Origin: an uncultured Gallionella sp.
GTDB taxonomy: Bacteria; Pseudomonadota; Gammaproteobacteria; Burkholderiales; Gallionellaceae
Assembly (NCBI GenBank): GCA_964385275.1
Contig: CAYLOK010000009.1
Location: 1,368-65,367, forward strand
DNA: 64,000 nt
Direction: 5' to 3'
Positions 155 through 64,000 of the stretch are shown piece by piece (the first letter of the stretch is position 1; each line of letters opens with the position of its first letter). Position numbers and translations under genes: made by a program. The notes beneath the pieces are model-generated. The model worked only from the letters and a program-made list of their open reading frames with translations, searched no databases and was not told the origin of the DNA.

Positions 155-1984
<1,830 letters not shown>

Positions 1985-3279: not shown

Positions 3280-3921
3280 CTAAACTAGAGGTAAATTCAA
3301 ATTTGCAAACTGCCGCGCAGCAAGCGTTATATCTTCCGCACCGAACAGCGCCGAAATCACCGCCAGCGCGTCAGCACCGGCGGCCAGCACAGATGCGCCA
3401 TTCTCTGCCGTAATGCCGCCTATCGCCACCAGCGGCAGACTCATCTCGCGGCGCGCCTGGCTCAATAAAGCCAGCGTCGCAACGGGTGCGTCAGGCTTAA
3501 TCGTCGAAGCGAAAACTGCACCAAATGCCACATAATCAGCGCCCTGCGTTGCCGCCTCATGCGCCAGAGGCAGGCGATTGTAACAAGAAATGCCGATAAT
3601 TTTTTCGCTGCCCAGCACAGCGCGCGCGGCAGCCACGCCGCCATCCTCGCCACCCAGATGTACGCCATCGGCATCCACCTGTTTCGCCAAAGCGGCGTCA
3701 TCGTTGATGATCAGCGGCACGCCGAATTCCCGCGTCAATATACGCAAGGCAGCGGCTTGCTCAAAACGCGTCGCCGCACTGCCCGGCTTGTTGCGATATT
3801 GCAGGACGCTCGCCCCGCCTTGCAAAGCCAGGCGCACACGGCGCAACAACTCCGCCGTATCGGCTTCTTCCGGCGTAATCGCGTACAGGCCTTTAATTAA
3901 GACGCTCGGGCTTTTCTTCAT
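3280..3921 (-). CDS. thiE: Thiamine-phosphate synthase
   Basis: [30 protein letters not shown] and VAIGGI. Start placed at MKKSPS (ATG 3921). Confidence 0.93.
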
Positions 3922-56993: not shown

Positions 56994-58469
56994 TTACAAC
57001 GCAGCCGCAATTTCCCTGAAGCTATTCAAACCCGCTTCAAGATTTTCGATGATTTCCCCCGCCAGCACATCCGGCTCCGGCAAGTTATCCAGATCGGCGA
57101 GGCTCTTGTCCTTCAACCAGAAAATATCCAGACTGGTTTTGTCGCGCGCGATGATTTGTTCGTAGCTGAATTTGCGCCAGCGCCCTTCCGGGTTTGCGGC
57201 TTCGTTCCAGCTTTCTTTGCGCTCATGGCGGTTGAGCGGGTTGTAGCTGGCGATGAAATCCTGCAAATCCTCAAAGCGCAGCGGTTTCTTTTTCAACGTG
57301 TGATGGGTGTTGGTGCGGTAGTCGTAGAACCACACCTCTTTCGTCCACGGTTCTTTGCTGGCGGCGTGGTTATCGAAAAACAGCACATTCGCCTTCACGC
57401 CGTTGGCGTAAAAGATGCCGGTGGGCAGGCGCAGGATGGTATGCAGCTCGGTGGTTTCCAGCAGCTTCTTGCGCACTGTCTCGCCTGCGCCACCTTCGAA
57501 CAGCACGTTGTCCGGCACGACGACCGCCGCGCGTCCGGTGGTCTTCAGCATGGTGCGGATGTGCTGCACAAAGTTGAGTTGCTTGTTGGAAGTGGTCGCC
57601 CAGAAATCCTGGCGGTTGTAAGTCAGATCATCCTTCTCCTGCTCGCCATCATCATTGGTGAAGCTCATCGAACTCTTCTTGCCGAAGGGCGGATTCGCCA
57701 GCACGTAGTCGTAACGTTTGCCGCCATCGGCCACCAGCGCATCGTTGGGCGACACCATGCTGTCTCCGTCGATCTCGCCGATGTTGTGCAAAAACATATT
57801 CATCAAGGCGAGGCGGCGCGTACCCGCCACGATCTCGTTACCGTTAAAGGTATCGTGTTTGAGGAATGCCTTCTGCGTCTTGTCCATCTTGTGTTCGGAC
57901 ACCAGAAAATCATAGGCCGCCAAAAAAAAGCCGCCCGTACCACAGGCTGGATCGGCGATGGTTTTCATTGGCTCAGGGCGCACGCATTCCACCATCGCGC
58001 GGATCAGCGCGCGCGGCGTGAAGTATTGCCCCGCACCCGACTTGGTATCTTCCGCGTTGCGTTCCAGCAAGCCCTCGTAGATGTCACCCTTCACATCCGC
58101 GCCCATCGTCACCCACTGCGTTTCGTTCACCATATCGATCAGGCGATACAGCTTGGCCGGGTCTTGAATCTTGTTTTGCGCCTTGGTGAAAATCGTCCCC
58201 AGCATGCCCGGCTTATTGCCCAGTTCGCGCAACAGCGTCACGTAATGCACCTCCAACTCCGCACCGCGCTTGGCCTTCAGGCTCTGCCAGTTGTACTCGT
58301 CAGGAATACCCACCTTGCGGTTATACGGCGGCTGGCTGTATTCATCTGCCATTTTCAGGAAGATCAGATAAGTCAGCTGCTCCAGATAGTCGCCGTAGCC
58401 TACGCCGTCGTCGCGCAACGTGGTGCAGAAACTCCAGACTTTGGAAACGATAGATGCGGTTGCGTTCAT
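56994..58469 (-). CDS. hsdM: Type I R-M methyltransferase subunit (locus 2)
   Basis: VWSFCTTLRDDG, GAGQYFTPR, DPACGTGGF and NPPF. ATG at 58469 has a GGAGG SD; the ORF-track extension to 58640 is translated repeat DNA. Confidence 0.95.
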   Translation of the reverse strand: MNATASIVSKVWSFCTTLRDDGVGYGDYLEQLTYLIFLKMADEYSQPPYNRKVGIPDEYNWQSLKAKRGAELEVHYVTLLRELGNKPGMLGTIFTKAQNKIQDPAKLYRLIDMVNETQWVTMGADVKGDIYEGLLERNAEDTKSGAGQYFTPRALIRAMVECVRPEPMKTIADPACGTGGFFLAAYDFLVSEHKMDKTQKAFLKHDTFNGNEIVAGTRRLALMNMFLHNIGEIDGDSMVSPNDALVADGGKRYDYVLANPPFGKKSSMSFTNDDGEQEKDDLTYNRQDFWATTSNKQLNFVQHIRTMLKTTGRAAVVVPDNVLFEGGAGETVRKKLLETTELHTILRLPTGIFYANGVKANVLFFDNHAASKEPWTKEVWFYDYRTNTHHTLKKKPLRFEDLQDFIASYNPLNRHERKESWNEAANPEGRWRKFSYEQIIARDKTSLDIFWLKDKSLADLDNLPEPDVLAGEIIENLEAGLNSFREIAAAL

Positions 58470-58538
58470 GGGTTTTCCTCCAGAAGGCCGCCATTCGGAA
58501 ATAGGTTTGGTATCAATCGCCCGCGAGAAATTAAGTGC

Positions 58539-58671
58539 ATCATTCCCGAAGCTCTCACCCCCGTCATTCCCGAAGCTCTCACCCCCGTCATTCCCGAAGC
58601 GGTTCTGATCGGGAATCCAGCCTTTAACCGGCAAAAACAATAGATCCCCGATAAAGACATTCGGGGATGAC
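58539..58671 (+). repeat. CGTC-type palindromic doublet preceded by two 24-bp half-units (element C)
   Basis: RTCATTCCCGAAGCTCTCACCCCC x2, then GTCATTCCCGA-N12-TCGGGAATCCAG, a spacer, and GATCCCCGA-N10-TCGGGGATGAC. Confidence 0.9.
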
Positions 58672-58701
58672 GGGCTGGCTGCGAAAGATCGGCTGGGCTA
58701 T

Positions 58702-58992
58702 TCAAACCAATTCTTCCCACAAATCTTTCCAAGTCGGATTCATCTTCTCGATCAAATCTATTTTCCATTGCCTGTTCCATTTTTTAAGTTGCTTCTCTCG
58801 TTCAATCGCTGTCAGCATCTGTTCATGCAACTCGTAATACACAAGCGAGTGAACTGTATATTTTTCCGTGAACCCTTCAACCAGATCATTCTTATGCTGC
58901 CAGATACGCTGAATCAGATTGCTGGTTACACCGATATACAAAGTGCCGTTGTATCCGCTCGCCAGAATATAAACCGCAGGCTGTTTCTCCAT
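58702..58992 (-). CDS. Stand-alone GIY-YIG nuclease (YhbQ/UPF0213-like)
   Basis: AVYILAS...TLYIGVTSNLIQRIWQHK, LVYYE and AIEREKQLKKWNRQWK. Confidence 0.92.
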   Translation of the reverse strand: MEKQPAVYILASGYNGTLYIGVTSNLIQRIWQHKNDLVEGFTEKYTVHSLVYYELHEQMLTAIEREKQLKKWNRQWKIDLIEKMNPTWKDLWEELV

Positions 58993-59012
58993 TGCACAAC
59001 CTCCATCAATCT

Positions 59013-59225
59013 GTCATTCCAGAAGTGACCCCACCCCGCCATTCCCGAAGCTATCACACCCCGTCATTCCCGAAGCTATCACACCCCGTCATTCCCGAAG
59101 CGTTCCCACCCCGTCATTCCCGAGACGGCTCCAACCCCGTCATTCCCGAGACGCTTCTTATCGGGAATCCAGCTTCTAACCCACCAAAACCATGGATCCC
59201 CGATAAAAACATTCGGGGATGACGG
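59013..59225 (+). repeat. CGTC-type palindromic doublet preceded by five 25-26 bp half-units (element B)
   Basis: Units start at 59013, 59038, 59063, 59088 and 59113 (GYCATTCCMGAR...CCCC). A full arm spans 59139-59172 and a second arm TGGATCCCCGA-N10-TCGGGGATGAC follows. Confidence 0.92.
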
Positions 59226-59249
59226 CTTAGACTTTGCTCAAGGTGTCAT

Positions 59250-60086
59250 TTATTTCTTCGCCAAACTTTTCTTCGCCGGAGGCAAATAGTTTTCAGCCGA
59301 AACCAGCTTCTTGCCCGTCTTGCCTTCCAGCTCCAGCCGCGCTTTTTTGGCGATACCGCCGCCGGTCTTCGCCGCAGCCTCATTCTCATTCATGCCCGTG
59401 GCATCCATGCTCTCGGCGATCTGGCGCGTGGAAAGCTCTGCCAGCGCGGTAAAAATCAATTCGGCTTCGCTCATGTGATCGCGCAGGTTTTGCGACTTCA
59501 GGCCTTTCATTTCCTTGTGCGCCTTCACATCCACTTCCGCCCATTCCTGATGAATGATGTTGGTCAGGATCGCGTATTCCTCGCCTTCCTTGATGTCATG
59601 CTCTTTCCAGTAATCGGTCAGCTTGTTGCGCGTCTCCTGCCCCGTCATGCGCTGCTGTATCCACTTCTCGCTGCGCCCGTGCTTCTGCCAGGTCTCGCGG
59701 GCTCGATCCAGAGAACGGGCGGGGTCAGCCATCTCCTGCATCCGCTCATAGCCCACCTTCGCCAGCCACAACTTAATCGGCTCCGCCTTCGGGCTGGGCA
59801 CGGACTGCACCAACCGCAGCAAAGCCTCGGCAGTGGCGACATCGGTGAGGTAATTCTTGCCATCTGCGGCAGGCAATTTCAGTCGGTGACAATTTGTCAC
59901 CGACTGACTGCCTTCCTTGCTCAGTCGCTCTTTCAGCTTGTTCCAATATTTGCGCGCTGTTTGATAATCAGGCTGCTGGGTCAACACCTGCACAATATCC
60001 ACCACCGAAAACCACCAGGTTTCCGTGGCCTCGTCATACACGCGACGGATTTTATGCTCTTCAAAAATGGCTGGTTGAGGTTGCAT
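59250..60086 (-). CDS. BRO-N domain DNA-binding protein (antirepressor-like)
   Basis: KIRRVYDE...WWFSVVDIV, RKYWNKLKERL, LRLVQSVPSPKAEPIKLWLA and NLRDHMSEAELIFTALAE. Confidence 0.85.
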   Translation of the reverse strand: MQPQPAIFEEHKIRRVYDEATETWWFSVVDIVQVLTQQPDYQTARKYWNKLKERLSKEGSQSVTNCHRLKLPAADGKNYLTDVATAEALLRLVQSVPSPKAEPIKLWLAKVGYERMQEMADPARSLDRARETWQKHGRSEKWIQQRMTGQETRNKLTDYWKEHDIKEGEEYAILTNIIHQEWAEVDVKAHKEMKGLKSQNLRDHMSEAELIFTALAELSTRQIAESMDATGMNENEAAAKTGGGIAKKARLELEGKTGKKLVSAENYLPPAKKSLAKK

Positions 60087-60103
60087 GGTCAGGACTCCTT
60101 CCC

Positions 60104-60217
60104 GTCATTCCCGCGCCCTCTTTCGTCACCCCCGCGAAGGCGGGGGTCCATGCGATTCAAAAACTGGATTCCCGCCGGAGCCTGCCCTCGAATGAATTTG
60201 TCGGGGGCGGGAATGAC
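60104..60217 (+). repeat. CGTC-type palindromic doublet with one half-unit (element A)
   Basis: GTCATTCCCGCGCCCTCTTTC, then GTCACCCCCGCGAAGGCGGGGGTCCA-TGCGATTCAAAAAC-TGGATTCCCGCC-[insert]-GGCGGGAATGAC. Confidence 0.88.
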
Positions 60218-60239
60218 GTTATAGGCGTGCAAAGTATGG

Positions 60240-61886
60240 CTAACCACGCTTGCTCCTTTTGCCAACCGCCGAGCTTTCCCCGGCAGTTGCCCGCTCCGCC
60301 TTGATGCGCGCCAGCAGTGCCGATGCGGGTTCGTCGTGCGGGTCTTGCGGCACCAGTTGGCCGGAGAAGGCTTTTTTCAGGATGGACTGGCGCAGGGCTT
60401 CGGCTTGTTGCAACGAGGTGGTGATGGTTAGTTCGAGTTGGTCAACTTCGGACAACCTTGCTGCAAGGCTTTCAATAACCACTTCAGATTCAGCACATGA
60501 ACAAATGGGCACGACTATTGATCGAATTCTTTCTTGCCCAATGTTGCGCATGGACTCTTGATTGCCTGTCGATAGCTGCATGATTTGTTTGCGCCCAAAG
60601 CGACTGCCAAGATACTGAAGGAAATATTCCTGAGAGAAGCCATCAAATCTGATGCGAAGTGTTTTATCGCTCAGCATGATTTTCTTGGTTACCTTCCTTG
60701 CAATGACGCAGGCTCCAACGAGATCAATGGTGTTTGCTCGGCTTAGAATGAAATCACCGTTCCTAATTAAATAGGCTTCATTTTCTTTCGATGCGTCAGT
60801 GCAAGTCTTGCTTTCCGATTCATCATATTCGCCCCACGTCACCGCACTTACTTTCGCGACTCCGATTTCATTTGCACGTGGTTCGCGTTCGTCACACTTA
60901 AAACTTTTCCCCGCATCAATCGACTCAATGAAGTCACCCAATTTGCACCATCCCCACCCCTGCGGCAGTTTTGGCAATTCGGCCCGCTCTTCGGCGGTGA
61001 GTGGCGGCAGGGGTTTCGGGGCTTTGGGTTTCCCAGCACGCTGGACAAGGCTGCCTTGTTTGACGTTGGCTTGCCAGTCGGCGAGTTGTTGCTGGTAGCG
61101 TTGCGCGCGCTCTTGCTGGATGCGCTTGAGCAAGGCCTGCCCGCCGGCAGGCTGGGCATCGGCGATTTCCAAACCCATATCGTCATTCCCGCGAAGGCGG
61201 GAATCCAGTTTTTCATTCGCATGGACTCCCGCCTTCGCGGGAGTGACGGAATTTTTAGTGCGGCGTTCCTCGCGCCACTGCGCAGTGAGCTTGCCCTCGA
61301 AGGCGTGTTTCAGCAAGGCCTGGCGATACACCTTGAGCTGCGCGCGGGCGGTCTTCAGGTTCTCAATGCCCTTGTCCAACTCGGAAAACAACTCCTCGAT
61401 TTTGACGACGATGCGGTGTTGTTCGGGAAGCGGCGGCAATGGAAAAGAAAACGAAGCAATATCGTTAGGCCGCACAGCCGGATAGAGTGCACCTTGTACG
61501 CATAGGCACATCTTCTCTATGAACTCCCGCGTATGCACCAGATAAAATAGAAACTTTGGCTCAACCCTTTTCGAGCGCAAAACATGAAATCCAGTCGAAC
61601 CAATCGCACCATGAAACTCAGATGTTGCCATTGCTATTGCATTCAGGTTTGGACGGGTCATTGAGATGAGAACATCTCCGCTTTGAAGCACTTGCTTAGC
61701 TCGGCTTGGTGCGGCTGTTGATTCTAGAACCTTAGCATCTGAGATACGTTTTTGCTCACGGTCTATGCTGCTTATATCAACATAGATAAATTCACTACTG
61801 ACTGGCCCGCTCCGGTCCACAGCTTCATCAGCCACTTCGCCAAGAATAGCCATAGACCAGCCATCTGGCAGCTCCACTTCACTCAT
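60240..61886 (-). CDS. hsdS: Type I R-M specificity subunit (locus 2) with long central linker
   Basis: ELPDGW, LPPLPEQHRIVVKIEELFSELD, HAFEGKLT, LPKLPQGW and ILKKAFSGQLVPQDP. The ATG overlaps the vapC stop. Confidence 0.94.
   Translation of the reverse strand: MSEVELPDGWSMAILGEVADEAVDRSGPVSSEFIYVDISSIDREQKRISDAKVLESTAAPSRAKQVLQSGDVLISMTRPNLNAIAMATSEFHGAIGSTGFHVLRSKRVEPKFLFYLVHTREFIEKMCLCVQGALYPAVRPNDIASFSFPLPPLPEQHRIVVKIEELFSELDKGIENLKTARAQLKVYRQALLKHAFEGKLTAQWREERRTKNSVTPAKAGVHANEKLDSRLRGNDDMGLEIADAQPAGGQALLKRIQQERAQRYQQQLADWQANVKQGSLVQRAGKPKAPKPLPPLTAEERAELPKLPQGWGWCKLGDFIESIDAGKSFKCDEREPRANEIGVAKVSAVTWGEYDESESKTCTDASKENEAYLIRNGDFILSRANTIDLVGACVIARKVTKKIMLSDKTLRIRFDGFSQEYFLQYLGSRFGRKQIMQLSTGNQESMRNIGQERIRSIVVPICSCAESEVVIESLAARLSEVDQLELTITTSLQQAEALRQSILKKAFSGQLVPQDPHDEPASALLARIKAERATAGESSAVGKRSKRG
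61182..61247. repeat. CGTC/dRS3-like palindromic doublet in frame in hsdS
   Basis: GTCATTCCCGCGAAGGCGGGAATCCA-N14-TGGACTCCCGCCTTCGCGGGAGTGAC: 26-bp arms with 2 mismatches, 66 nt in total, translated VTPAKAGVHANEKLDSRLRGND. Confidence 0.92.
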
Positions 61887-62272
61887 CACCACACGACCGG
61901 AACTGAATAAGCTGCGAACGCATGATCGACAGAGACGATGGTCATGCCTTCCACAACGGCCTGGGCAATGATCAGGCGGTCAAATGGATCTCTATGATGC
62001 TGTGGTAATTGTTCCAGATAGCTTATGTGCGATAACTCGATCGGCAATAATTTTATGTTATTTTCAAGCGTATTTTTATTCACCAACTCTTCAATTGGCA
62101 TGGCTAATGATAATTTATCGAGCTGGCTTTTGATTTGCATTTCCCAAGGCGAAGCCATACTCAAATAAAATTCATGCGCGCCCGAGCTGCATAAGTCCTG
62201 CACTGTTTTGGAAAGTCGTTCAGGGTCATCGTTGAGCCAGAGAAAAACGTGGGTGTCCAGCAACAACTTCAT
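61886..62272 (-). CDS. vapC: PIN-domain (VapC-like) toxin
   Basis: MKLLLDTHVFLW, SMASPWEMQIK and HRDPFDRLIIAQA. Confidence 0.9.
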   Translation of the reverse strand: MKLLLDTHVFLWLNDDPERLSKTVQDLCSSGAHEFYLSMASPWEMQIKSQLDKLSLAMPIEELVNKNTLENNIKLLPIELSHISYLEQLPQHHRDPFDRLIIAQAVVEGMTIVSVDHAFAAYSVPVVW

Positions 62273-62607: not shown

Positions 62608-64000
62608 TCATGCAACCAGTACCTCGTTGAGTTCATCCAGCAACGTATCCATCTTCGCGCCGAACAACTGATACATTTTGCCCAGCCCGCCCTGTCCGAA
62701 TGGTGGATCTTCAAGCTCATCACGTTCAATGTGAAATGAAATAGCAACGTGGTCGCGCACCATGCGCAGCCAGTCCATTTGTTCCTCGTTGAATTTTTCT
62801 GTGCCGCCGGAGTGGTGTTTCATAATCCAGTTTCTAAAGTTGCGGCGCACGGTGGCATCAAAGTCGGTGAGCGTTTCATCCATGCCGCACACGCGGCGGA
62901 TGAGCGCCACGAGTGCAGTCAACTCACTGACTGGATTCCCGCCTGCGCGGGAATGACGAGCTGTTTGGGCTTCTAAGCGTTGATAAGCTTGCCACACATA
63001 CAAGGGGGCGAGCTTGGGTTTGTCGGTTTTGAGTTTATCCAGCACCTGGCGGATCAGGTCGTAGCTGAGTTCGCGCCTGCGATACGGCTGGCTGAAGAAG
63101 ATGGTGAGGGCGGCGATGTTGTCTTGGTTCGCCTTTAAGTATTCGGCGAATTCGTCGGCGATGGCTTGCGCGTGGTCGGCCATGTTCGCTTCCCAGCCCG
63201 CGCCCAACACGGTGTCGAGTGTGTCGTGGTCTATGGTTTGTTCTTTGTCGCGGCGGATGGTGTCGAGCAGTTCCACCAGTTCGCCATTCAGCACGCTGGC
63301 GACTTCTTGTACCAATTGCTGCTGCGCCAGTTCGCGTTTTGCGTCGCCGGGGTCTGTGCCGATTGGCTGGCCTGCGAGTTGCAGCGCGCGGGCTTCGATG
63401 TTGTCGGCATCAATCGCGCCGAATAGCTGGCCGACGAGTTGGTTGAGTTCCAACCCGCCTGCGGCTTGCCGAATCATGCGCTGGTCGTCGGCATCCAGTT
63501 GTTTGTTGAGCCGCGCCAGGCGTCCGGCCAGAGATGACACGGTGTCTTCGTCCGTCGCGCCCATCATCACCTGCATCGCCAAATCTTTAAGCGGCACGGT
63601 GGGTTTGGTGATGAGCGGCTGGCTGGCGGTCTTGAGTGATTTGGTGACGCCGATGGCATCGACGATGACATAGTGGGTCTTGGCGCTGACGGCGGAGGGG
63701 GTGACTTTGCGCAGGTCGTCGATGTCCAGCGTGCGCGTGCCGCGCCCTTTCATCTGCTCGAAGTAGTTGCGGCTTTTCACGTCGCGCATGAACAACAGGC
63801 ATTCCAGCGGCTTCACGTCCGTGCCCGTGGCGACCATGTCCACGGTGACGGCGATGCGCGGGTAATACTCGTTGCGGAATTGCTGCAATACCGACTTGGG
63901 GTCTTCGTCGGTTTTGTAGGTGAGCTTTTTGCAGAACGCATTGCGCTCGTCGAATTCCTCGCGCACGGTCTGGATGATGTCGTCGGCGTGGCTGTCGGTC
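62608..64000 (-). CDS. hsdR: Type I R-M restriction subunit (locus 2), 5' part outside the window
   Basis: RIAVTVDMVATGTDVKPLE, SRNYFEQMKGRGTR and an EcoEI-like C-terminus (QGGLGKMYQLFG...LDELNEVLVA). The frame is open to the window edge. Confidence 0.92.
   Translation of the reverse strand, partial: TDSHADDIIQTVREEFDERNAFCKKLTYKTDEDPKSVLQQFRNEYYPRIAVTVDMVATGTDVKPLECLLFMRDVKSRNYFEQMKGRGTRTLDIDDLRKVTPSAVSAKTHYVIVDAIGVTKSLKTASQPLITKPTVPLKDLAMQVMMGATDEDTVSSLAGRLARLNKQLDADDQRMIRQAAGGLELNQLVGQLFGAIDADNIEARALQLAGQPIGTDPGDAKRELAQQQLVQEVASVLNGELVELLDTIRRDKEQTIDHDTLDTVLGAGWEANMADHAQAIADEFAEYLKANQDNIAALTIFFSQPYRRRELSYDLIRQVLDKLKTDKPKLAPLYVWQAYQRLEAQTARHSRAGGNPVSELTALVALIRRVCGMDETLTDFDATVRRNFRNWIMKHHSGGTEKFNEEQMDWLRMVRDHVAISFHIERDELEDPPFGQGGLGKMYQLFGAKMDTLLDELNEVLVA
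62931..62957 (-). repeat. Single CGTC/dRS3-like palindrome in frame in hsdR
   Basis: Minus strand reads GTCATTCCCGCGCAGGCGGGAATCCAG (ATTCCC-N8-GGGAAT), translated RHSRAGGNP. Confidence 0.9.

Follow-up and report, generated by a model that had tools for sequence, protein, structure and literature searches.

Incomplete copies of a hairpin repeat are stacked in tandem around a small GIY-YIG nuclease gene in the window, by which we mean the whole 64-kb stretch of DNA analysed here, from an uncultured Gallionella sp. We found that these half units are local tandem duplicates at the 5′ boundary of a complete hairpin, that they lie on one side of it, decay away from it and follow a geometry specific to each genome, and that identical neighbouring units are gained and lost by slippage. 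We regard it as probable that the stacks arise through polar local tandem duplication together with slippage, at the side on which Ssn nucleases cut hairpins of the NTS/SRM type. The locus comprises the following features:

about 56994-58469, minus strand: hsdM, type I restriction-modification methylase gene, downstream of ssn and in the same orientation (genomic context)
58539-58586, plus strand: array C, two 24-bp first-half units (…TCATTCCCGAAGCTCTCACCCCC), from sequence reading and Tandem Repeats Finder
58587-58620, plus strand: left hairpin of element C, complete, GTCATTCCCGAAGCGGTTCTGATCGGGAATCCAG
58644-58671, minus strand: right hairpin of element C, inverted, paired with 58587-58620
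58702-58992, minus strand: ssn, encoding a 96-aa single-domain GIY-YIG nuclease (from Pfam and homologues)
59013-59138, plus strand: array B, five tandem first-half units, from sequence reading and Tandem Repeats Finder
59139-59172, plus strand: left hairpin of element B, complete, GTCATTCCCGAGACGCTTCTTATCGGGAATCCAG; GTC-ATTCCCGA-N11-TCGGGAAT-CCAG, an NTS-like long-loop variant
59196-59223, minus strand: right hairpin of element B, inverted, GTCATCCCCGAATGTTTTTATCGGGGAT
59250-60086, minus strand: Bro-N domain gene, between hsdS and ssn (genomic context)
60104-60124, plus strand: single 21-bp first-half unit of element A, GTCATTCCCGCGCCCTCTTTC, then hairpin GTCACCCCCGCGAAGGCGGGGGTC
60240-61892, minus strand: hsdS, type I restriction-modification specificity subunit gene (genomic context)
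61181-61248, plus strand: canonical NTS pair without half units, inside the hsdS reading frame (from pattern match)
62931-62958, minus strand: solitary hairpin, exact NTS-consensus match, without half units (from pattern match)

All genes of the locus are encoded on the minus strand, as a type I restriction-modification operon. Within it, ssn is bracketed by elements C and B, direct repeats of 85 bp that are 86% identical; the two hairpins of element B (59139-59172 and 59196-59223) together make an 85-bp MITE-like pair. In both elements, the half units are stacked outside the left hairpin, at its 5′ side, and the end of array B sits 20 bp upstream of the ssn start codon. The letters confirmed what a sequence-only reading of this DNA had described, namely five units of 25-26 bp (59013-59138) followed by a full palindrome (59139-59172), with the same one-sided stacking at element C (two 24-bp units, 58539-58586) and element A (one 21-bp unit, 60104-60124). 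Tandem Repeats Finder reported 59013-59149 with a period of 25, 5.4 copies, 86% matches and a score of 174, and a second array at 58540-58600 with a period of 24, 2.5 copies and 100% matches. The head GTCATTCCCGA, with at most one mismatch, occurred 18 times in the window against 1.15 expected, a count reached in none of 100 shuffles. Since the same five units were present in independent ENA and JGI assemblies (L201, L202), between which array B is identical, the array is not an assembly artefact.

The units of array B span 59013-59037, 59038-59062, 59063-59087 and 59088-59112 (25 bp each) and 59113-59138 (26 bp). Each consists of GTC, the 5′ stem arm ATTCCCGA, three to six bases from the start of the loop and a tail that is poor in G and ends in CCCC; at the 3′ end, the left hairpin of element B is the sole complete member. 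As the earlier reading had noticed, the left half-arm alone is repeated and the heads are better conserved than the tails. The distal unit is the most degenerate, and units 2-4 carry GAAGC. Units 2 and 3 are near-identical twins with identical tails, in which the second head base differs (GCCATT versus GTCATT). The proximal unit has the GAGACG variant, GAGACG(G)CT, in common with the hairpin, which suggests that the most recent addition was copied from the 5′ part of the hairpin itself. No stack of 3′ arms of the kind that a nested-insertion model would need was seen beyond the right end in the window, and we rejected that model for this reason.

The 96-aa ssn product matched the Pfam GIY-YIG family (PF01541) over residues 6-78 (E = 1.8e-14) and contained no further domain; Y8, Y19, R29, H33, E66 and N73 were invariant across its aligned homologues. 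At least 361 relatives with 63-94% identity were found in species-representative genomes, their hosts including Proteobacteria, Chloroflexi, Planctomycetes, Nitrospirota, CPR bacteria and others. GTCATTCC…GGAATGAC flanks most of these relatives; the ORF of the simplest cases (L005, L006, L015, L020) is bracketed directly by a 26-bp terminal inverted repeat. The ssn product shares 69% identity over 93 aa (E = 4e-40) with the homologue from Neisseria musculi (L063), whose gene lies between canonical NTS pairs; the family itself is delimited by homology to Neisseria SsnA at E < 1e-10 (PMC11893778). Judged by homology, the predicted 96-aa GIY-YIG protein most likely belongs to the Ssn family, which consists of single-domain GIY-YIG proteins (cd10448) specific for single-stranded DNA (PMC11893778). 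Its Y8, Y19 and E66, with an offset of +2 and the same spacing, would be the counterparts of Y6, Y17 and E64, the catalytic residues of N. meningitidis SsnA. A PDB sequence search returned spurious WD40 matches only.

The GIY-YIG gene and its hairpins represent the Ssn/NTS system, an identification that the sequence-only reading did not make. This nuclease/hairpin pair has already been described (Chenal et al. 2025, PMC11893778); half-unit arrays are undescribed there, and neither "tandem", nor "slippage", nor half-site stacks appear in that paper. In literature searches on GIY-YIG proteins with repeats, on the motif and on Ssn follow-ups, the 2025 Ssn paper was the only relevant result.

NTS, CGTCATTCCCGCGMAVGCGGGAATCYRG, is an extension of the Neisseria dRS3 repeat and is bound by Ssn only as single-stranded DNA (PMC11893778). 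The characterised members, from Neisseria and Wolbachia, make their cut only on the strand of the hairpin, a few bases to its 5′ side; Ssn has no activity on double-stranded DNA, which stays unbound, or on RNA, which SsnA neither binds nor cuts (PMC11893778). For cutting, the GTC on the 5′ side of the palindrome is important, and for binding, the C that directly follows it on the 3′ side. Loop extensions are tolerated, and a first half of the substrate, comprising the cut site and half the palindrome, is cleaved once its second half is added in trans, also in the form of a rolling-circle concatemer (PMC11893778). From the 20-nt 5′ product and the critical positions G26 and C49 (PMC11893778), the N. 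meningitidis cut would fall about 5 nt away from the G of GTC, on its 5′ side.

In the window, the directional NTS/SRM motif GTC-ATTCCCGA…TCGGGAAT-C is present at 59139-59169 and 58587-58617, and ssn is flanked on both sides by hairpin pairs (58587-58671 and 59139-59223) that are long-loop variants. None of the four ssn-flanking hairpins, 59139-59172 included, matched the NTS consensus or the SRM pattern, since their loops measure 9-11 nt and the arm ends in an A; the hairpin of array B is therefore an NTS-like variant and not a pattern-defined member. The window as a whole holds two exact NTS-consensus matches and four SRM-pattern matches. Exact agreement with the published consensus was found at 61181-61208 (plus strand), and the hairpin of element A, at about 60124-60151 with its outer right arm ending at 60217, matched the SRM pattern. 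By analogy with the characterised enzymes, we assume that the Ssn of the window would be active on its own long-loop flanking hairpins.

To describe the units beyond this locus we used 138 arrays that end 3′ in a complete hairpin, taken from the listed arrays of at least three heads in diverse phyla and the window. Among these listed matches, the head shared with the complete hairpin had a modal length of 11 nt, equal to GTC plus the 8-nt 5′ arm, and thus the unit breaks off at the stem/loop junction. It contains no 3′ arm and none of the loop, or just the start of it; with the 3′ arm missing, a half unit cannot fold alone. The tails, 7-11 nt long, consist of 51% C, 27% T, 14% A and 7% G, compared with 27% G in distant flanks (138 arrays, among the matches listed), and the 5′ flank of 365 solitary hairpins is equally G-depleted over about -10 to -1. 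Since the tails equal the natural 5′ flank of solitary hairpins in composition, the unit can be read as 5′ flank, GTC and 5′ arm. By analogy, it corresponds to the "first half" of the published Ssn substrate, the expected cut lying in its flank of about 10 nt. Cut site and unit boundary do not simply coincide, because the Neisseria cut, at about -5, would fall inside the 8-11-nt tail.

Among the arrays listed, periods of 19, 20, 21 and 22 bp occurred 60, 64, 110 and 72 times, respectively, giving a mode of 21 bp and no 3-periodicity. The periods of 24-26 bp in the window lie at the long end, partly because its units include three to six loop bases; very short units of 10 bp and 12 bp were seen in L020 and L192, respectively. 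A plus-strand ORF (58992-59222) spans array B, yet the periods here and the family-wide distribution, which has no 3-periodicity, indicate that the array is not coding, and we discarded the coding reading.

Several origins of the tails were likewise considered and rejected. The tails are not decayed loop plus 3′ arm, as their G content is 7% while the 3′ arm is G-rich, with few exceptions (L086, L185). Nor are they copies of the head in direct, mirror, complement or reverse-complement form, which agreed at most at 37% against a null of 32%; the tail ends do weakly resemble the …TTCCC of the head (41% versus 35%, z = 4.2). Similarity between the tail and the sequence upstream of the first head was significant overall (4.09 versus 2.77 of 8), largely as a result of further decayed units lying upstream. 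In clean two-head cases, the tail was usually no copy of the sequence directly upstream of the first head, which argues that a simple fresh duplication of flank plus head was not the founding event everywhere. A strict G-quadruplex motif on the bottom strand was found in 16/73 arrays versus 5/73 controls, and in none in the window; we attribute this excess to C-richness as a by-product and set the G-quadruplex idea aside.

The polarity that the sequence-only reading had seen at this locus was checked at other loci and recurred there. Among the 154 arrays listed, from many phyla, the complete hairpin was the 3′-most member in 129 and the first member in none; of the others, 24 terminated at a contig end or in a unit that was imperfect or interrupted, one was mixed and none was reversed. 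A set not selected for arrays, consisting of 80 ssn-anchored loci and 9 kb of the window around the locus, gave the same picture, with 24 of 32 same-orientation clusters of at least two heads ending in a complete hairpin and none reversed. In this set, 47 of 229 complete hairpins near ssn genes (20.5%) had extra 5′ half units, and a comparable feature on the 3′ side was present at three (1.3%), which differ in kind. The asymmetry of 47 to 3 implies that the palindrome alone is insufficient, and it coincides with the directionality of NTS and with the side and strand of the published Ssn cut.

Conservation of the heads is graded in the same direction. Among the arrays listed, mean identity to the complete hairpin was 10.68 of 11 for proximal, 10.44 for interior and 9.79 for distal-most heads; the proximal head was the better match in 61 arrays and the distal one in 7 (p = 7e-12), and the mean within-array Spearman coefficient of 0.53 was reached in none of 2000 permutations. 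Part of this gradient could be the usual edge decay of tandem arrays.

Arrays of one genome resemble each other. They have a common tail style (similarity 4.66 versus 3.10 of 8, p = 1e-11), and their periods differ by 1.1 nt versus 2.6 nt (p = 8e-9). This specificity of period and tail points to a putative lineage-specific determinant, which may be, for example, the geometry of the cognate enzyme or the local hairpin family. An ssn ORF was present in 7 of 120 array-selected loci, and arrays were not enriched close to ssn (37/192 within 400 bp versus 10/37 farther away); the stacks are thus a genome-wide property of the hairpin repeats and not of ssn flanks. In other genomes, the long-loop hairpin variant seen at array B had half units at 3 of 128 copies.

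In a comparison of strains, as the sequence-only reading had proposed, unit number does vary, and the variation at the twins fits slippage. A contig encoding an identical protein (L206) has four units where the window has five, and the missing unit is one of the twins; slippage, which the earlier reading had invoked for the identical pair, explains that pair. The orthologous spacer between the Bro-N gene and ssn in L001 (94% protein identity) holds three different units. Unitigs from other groundwater metagenomes join 59009 to 59136 and 58993 to 59110, skipping 126 and 116, so that the array is mostly or wholly gone; the letters between the two sides were unread, and these joints are taken only as fewer units. 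One unitig joins 58598 to 59135, with ssn and one element gone, and an empty Bro-N-hsdM spacer without an element (58470 joined to 59269), in which the whole 798-bp block is absent, was also seen. Logan unitigs give no within-population copy numbers. A metagenome scan for the ssn-array spacer returned one match, a locus already in the comparison.

These observations can be assembled into a mechanism. The hairpin and an Ssn nick in single-stranded DNA would act as the trigger, followed by misaligned repair or replication restart; each newest unit would be added next to the hairpin, out of register, and older, distal units would decay. Once at least two units are present, any 5′ arm may pair with the lone 3′ arm or with the inverted right hairpin, and such alternative pairings would multiply the registers of cutting and slippage in single-stranded DNA. 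When 59000-59235 is folded as single-stranded DNA, various heads do pair with the inverted hairpin on the right (z = -3.6; inverted repeats I8-I15). On this nick-triggered reading, the array would be a scar and not a device. The sequence-only reading had proposed that repeated nick-and-repair adds units directionally: the one-sided rule, the cutting side and strand, the decay and the sharing of GAGACG uphold the directional part, and the Ssn nick is a candidate cause of the additions.

The stacks might instead have grown by replication slippage independent of Ssn, through microhomology of the pyrimidine-rich 5′ flank and the TTCCC-containing 5′ arm beside a stalling hairpin, in which case the polarity would merely reflect the C-rich flank on one side of the motif; we hold this to be possible rather than probable. 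A palindromic hairpin alone predicts units on both sides, against the 47 and 3 observed, and on this slippage view the G-poor flank itself has no explanation. Slippage does account for identical neighbour units and for four versus five copies in near-identical strains, and the 10-bp and 12-bp units resemble slipping on CC or CCC; the …TTCCC-like tail ends and the lack of enrichment beside ssn also speak for it. The genome-specific period and tail style, however, points to a lineage determinant, and the unit is the experimentally defined functional first half of an Ssn substrate. Slippage without Ssn nevertheless stays a serious rival, because the nick-triggered mechanism does not account for the founding event, for tails that do not derive from the head, for a cut position inside the tail or for the rarity of half units at the long-loop variant (3/128).

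It is improbable, in our judgement, that the array is functional, its first halves being selected as alternative Ssn registers or as a binding platform that spreads or tunes single-stranded DNA cleavage near the element or tunes ssn expression, or as alternative left ends of the MITE-like element. Such a role would suit the cutting of first-half concatemers by SsnA once the second half is supplied, its tolerance of loop extensions (PMC11893778), the fold in which varied heads pair with the inverted hairpin on the right, the most frequent period, which at 21 bp is close to two helical turns, and the position just upstream of the ssn start codon. The units decay away from the hairpin, though, and their number, roughly 0, 3, 4 and 5 among close relatives, gives no sign of constraint; most hairpins have no array, Ssn leaves double-stranded DNA unbound (PMC11893778), and a promoter/terminator scan of 58300-60300 found no sigma-70-like promoter site.

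The sequence-only reading had further suggested that the array records past events or yields short repeat-tail RNAs, and heads that stay constant, tails that vary and growth that appears polar do recall CRISPR spacers that record insertions, but we give almost no credence to RNAs acting with the GIY-YIG protein or to a memory in the tails, given that SsnA neither binds nor cuts RNA (PMC11893778), that no Rfam match, promoter-like site or coverage peak falls on the array, that its periods are not multiples of three and it is non-coding, and that the tails are short (7-11 nt), G-poor, C-rich, constrained to the composition of the native flank, genome-specific and not derived from the head in any orientation, and so do not look captured. 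Across the whole window, the sole Rfam match was an anti-hemB sRNA at 1235-1308. The array does occur in metatranscriptome unitigs from the same study and site, within operon-level coverage: hsdS, the Bro-N gene, element B with the proximal units, ssn with element C, and hsdM appear at similar depth (13-36) without a peak on the array, which fits operon read-through.

Returning to polar duplication at the Ssn cutting side, we put forward one extension tentatively, as a possibility and not an expectation: the stacks may be in vivo footprints, in which each misrepaired Ssn nick adds one first-half unit by the hairpin, leaving a polar, genome-wide scar record whose extra DNA-guided cutting registers would in turn influence local recombination and the dissemination of NTS elements. 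For the Ssn/NTS system, first described in 2025, stacks that occur at about one-fifth of the hairpins near ssn and across very many phyla, with their decay gradient and genome-specific spacing, offer a sequence read-out of recurrent events at the cutting side in vivo. If the nick is causal, arrays would allow Ssn activity and cut position to be gauged cheaply from the genomes of uncultured organisms, and would give a handle on how hairpins destabilise and diversify neighbouring DNA.

Among known systems, CRISPR arrays likewise combine a constant with a variable part and appear to grow at one end and decay at the other. Here, in contrast, the tails contain little G and resemble the flank, the locus has no evident machinery for acquisition or RNA, and its nuclease ignores RNA; we rejected the array as a CRISPR, whose repeats of 23-55 nt alternate with unique spacers of like length, because its variable parts are 7-11 nt long and mutually similar. 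Minisatellites (VNTRs) resized by slippage, and flap-hairpin expansions, share the copy changes between identical neighbours and a stable hairpin by the nick site. A simple-slippage VNTR is recognisable in units 2 and 3, twins apart from one head substitution, one of which is absent from L206; here, though, the unit is defined by a half-site that a protein recognises, and the array lies strictly on one side of a complete site. VNTR slippage explains the resizing of the array and not its polarity or its founding event.

REP/BIME repeats with their RAYT proteins (IS200/IS605-like Y1 transposases) also feature a small nuclease gene flanked by hairpin repeats that are recognised as single-stranded DNA, spread over the genome and clustered. 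RAYTs, as HUH/Y1 enzymes, go through covalent intermediates, but Ssn is a GIY-YIG nuclease that acts by hydrolysis, and BIMEs are built from whole REPs in alternating orientation, unlike the polar half-site stacks seen here. In Neisseria, NIMEs alternate complete dRS3 palindromes with RS segments of 50-150 bp. The present repeats belong to the same ATTCCC…GGGAAT palindrome family (dRS3 as given in PMC11893778), and they too form clustered, strain-variable intergenic arrays. Their units, however, are 19-26 bp long with the 5′ arm only, and one complete hairpin stands at one end; on the single arm per unit and the period of 24-26 bp, we rejected array B as a NIME.

The closest likeness is to Ssn/NTS itself (PMC11893778): a single-domain GIY-YIG protein of about 95 aa, GTCATTCCC…GGGAATCC hairpins on both sides of its gene, exact copies of the NTS consensus in the window, and a stack on the 5′ side, where the enzyme cuts. 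The window differs from the published systems in its half-site tandem arrays, which that paper does not contain, in the 9-11-nt loops and the A closing the arm, which leave the SRM pattern unmatched, and in its host, an uncultured groundwater bacterium in which the gene lies inside a type I restriction-modification operon and its activity is predicted. Taken alone, the window presents an ordinary member of a known system with a previously undescribed ornament.

The cassette formed by ssn, which encodes a 96-aa single-domain GIY-YIG nuclease, and its flanking arrays of stacked half-site units proved to be variable among related strains. In one related strain, the spacer between the Bro-N gene and hsdM (window 58470-59269) was devoid of an entire 798-bp block that comprises array C, element C, ssn, array B and element B, the two elements being the hairpin pairs that bracket the nuclease gene. 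A second related form was missing only ssn and one element, with a join from 58598 to 59135. Together, these two forms, from sequencing runs X5 and X10, make the ssn/array cassette an insertion/deletion polymorphism among related strains.

Variation also occurred on a much finer scale. Very short half-site units, with sizes of 10 bp, 12 bp and 9 bp, were found in three loci from other genomes (L020, at 3300-3375, L192 and L010), the 10-bp unit being GGAATGACGG in five copies, and in L020 the loop and the 3′ arm also contained a tandem duplication. These cases mark the hairpin as a general hotspot of micro-duplication. Within the window, one structure was composite:

60101-60218, composite or nested element, with an outer GTCATTCCCGC…GCGGGAATGAC pair around a GTCACCCCCGCGAAGGCGGGGGTC hairpin

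The stem of its right arm carries a 28-bp insert, and this structure suggests that hairpins insert into, or duplicate within, each other. A further pair was located inside a gene:

61181-61248, canonical NTS hairpin pair (repeats cut 5′ by characterised Ssn enzymes as ssDNA), inside the hsdS reading frame (60240-61892, minus strand)

The hsdS frame continues uninterrupted across this pair (…SVTPAKAGVHANEKLDSRLRGNDD…, approximately residues 215-238), and the NTS-encoded stretch lies between both target-recognition halves, the first of which alone gave a Pfam match (residues 67-178).

Because the variable tails of the half units are C-rich, many arrays present G-tracts on the opposite strand. 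A strict G-quadruplex motif was detected in 16 of 73 arrays from L081-L200, the array-selected loci, versus 5 of 73 control segments; on the minus strand of 59013-59172 the motif emerged only if the permitted loop length was raised to 12 nt. At the transcript level, a metatranscriptome unitig over ssn stopped at 59001, within the GGAGG that precedes the start codon, where it passed into Illumina adapter (runs X21, X22), suggesting a discrete fragment end. Since comparable adapter junctions were also observed at 58153 and 58368, the 59001 end may be a library artefact. One sRNA was matched elsewhere in the window:

1235-1308, plus strand, anti-hemB sRNA (Burkholderia RNA 7; Rfam, 58.2 bits, E = 5e-11)

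This match agrees with a betaproteobacterial origin of the window.

Across the ssn-anchored loci (L001-L080), Ssn protein identity was 63-75% between Proteobacteria, Planctomycetes, Chloroflexi and CPR Paceibacterota, an unusually high conservation that is compatible with frequent horizontal transfer. The long-loop hairpin variant was also present in L273, a contig binned as the archaeon Candidatus Methanoperedens. In several relatives, ssn and its hairpins reside within a type I R-M operon: Nitrosomonas mobilis and N. oligotropha (L003, L004) share the hsdS-ssn-hsdM placement of the window (56994-61892), and in L039 ssn lies immediately upstream of an hsdS-like gene. The placement of an ssDNA nuclease inside a dsDNA restriction operon may be more than coincidence.
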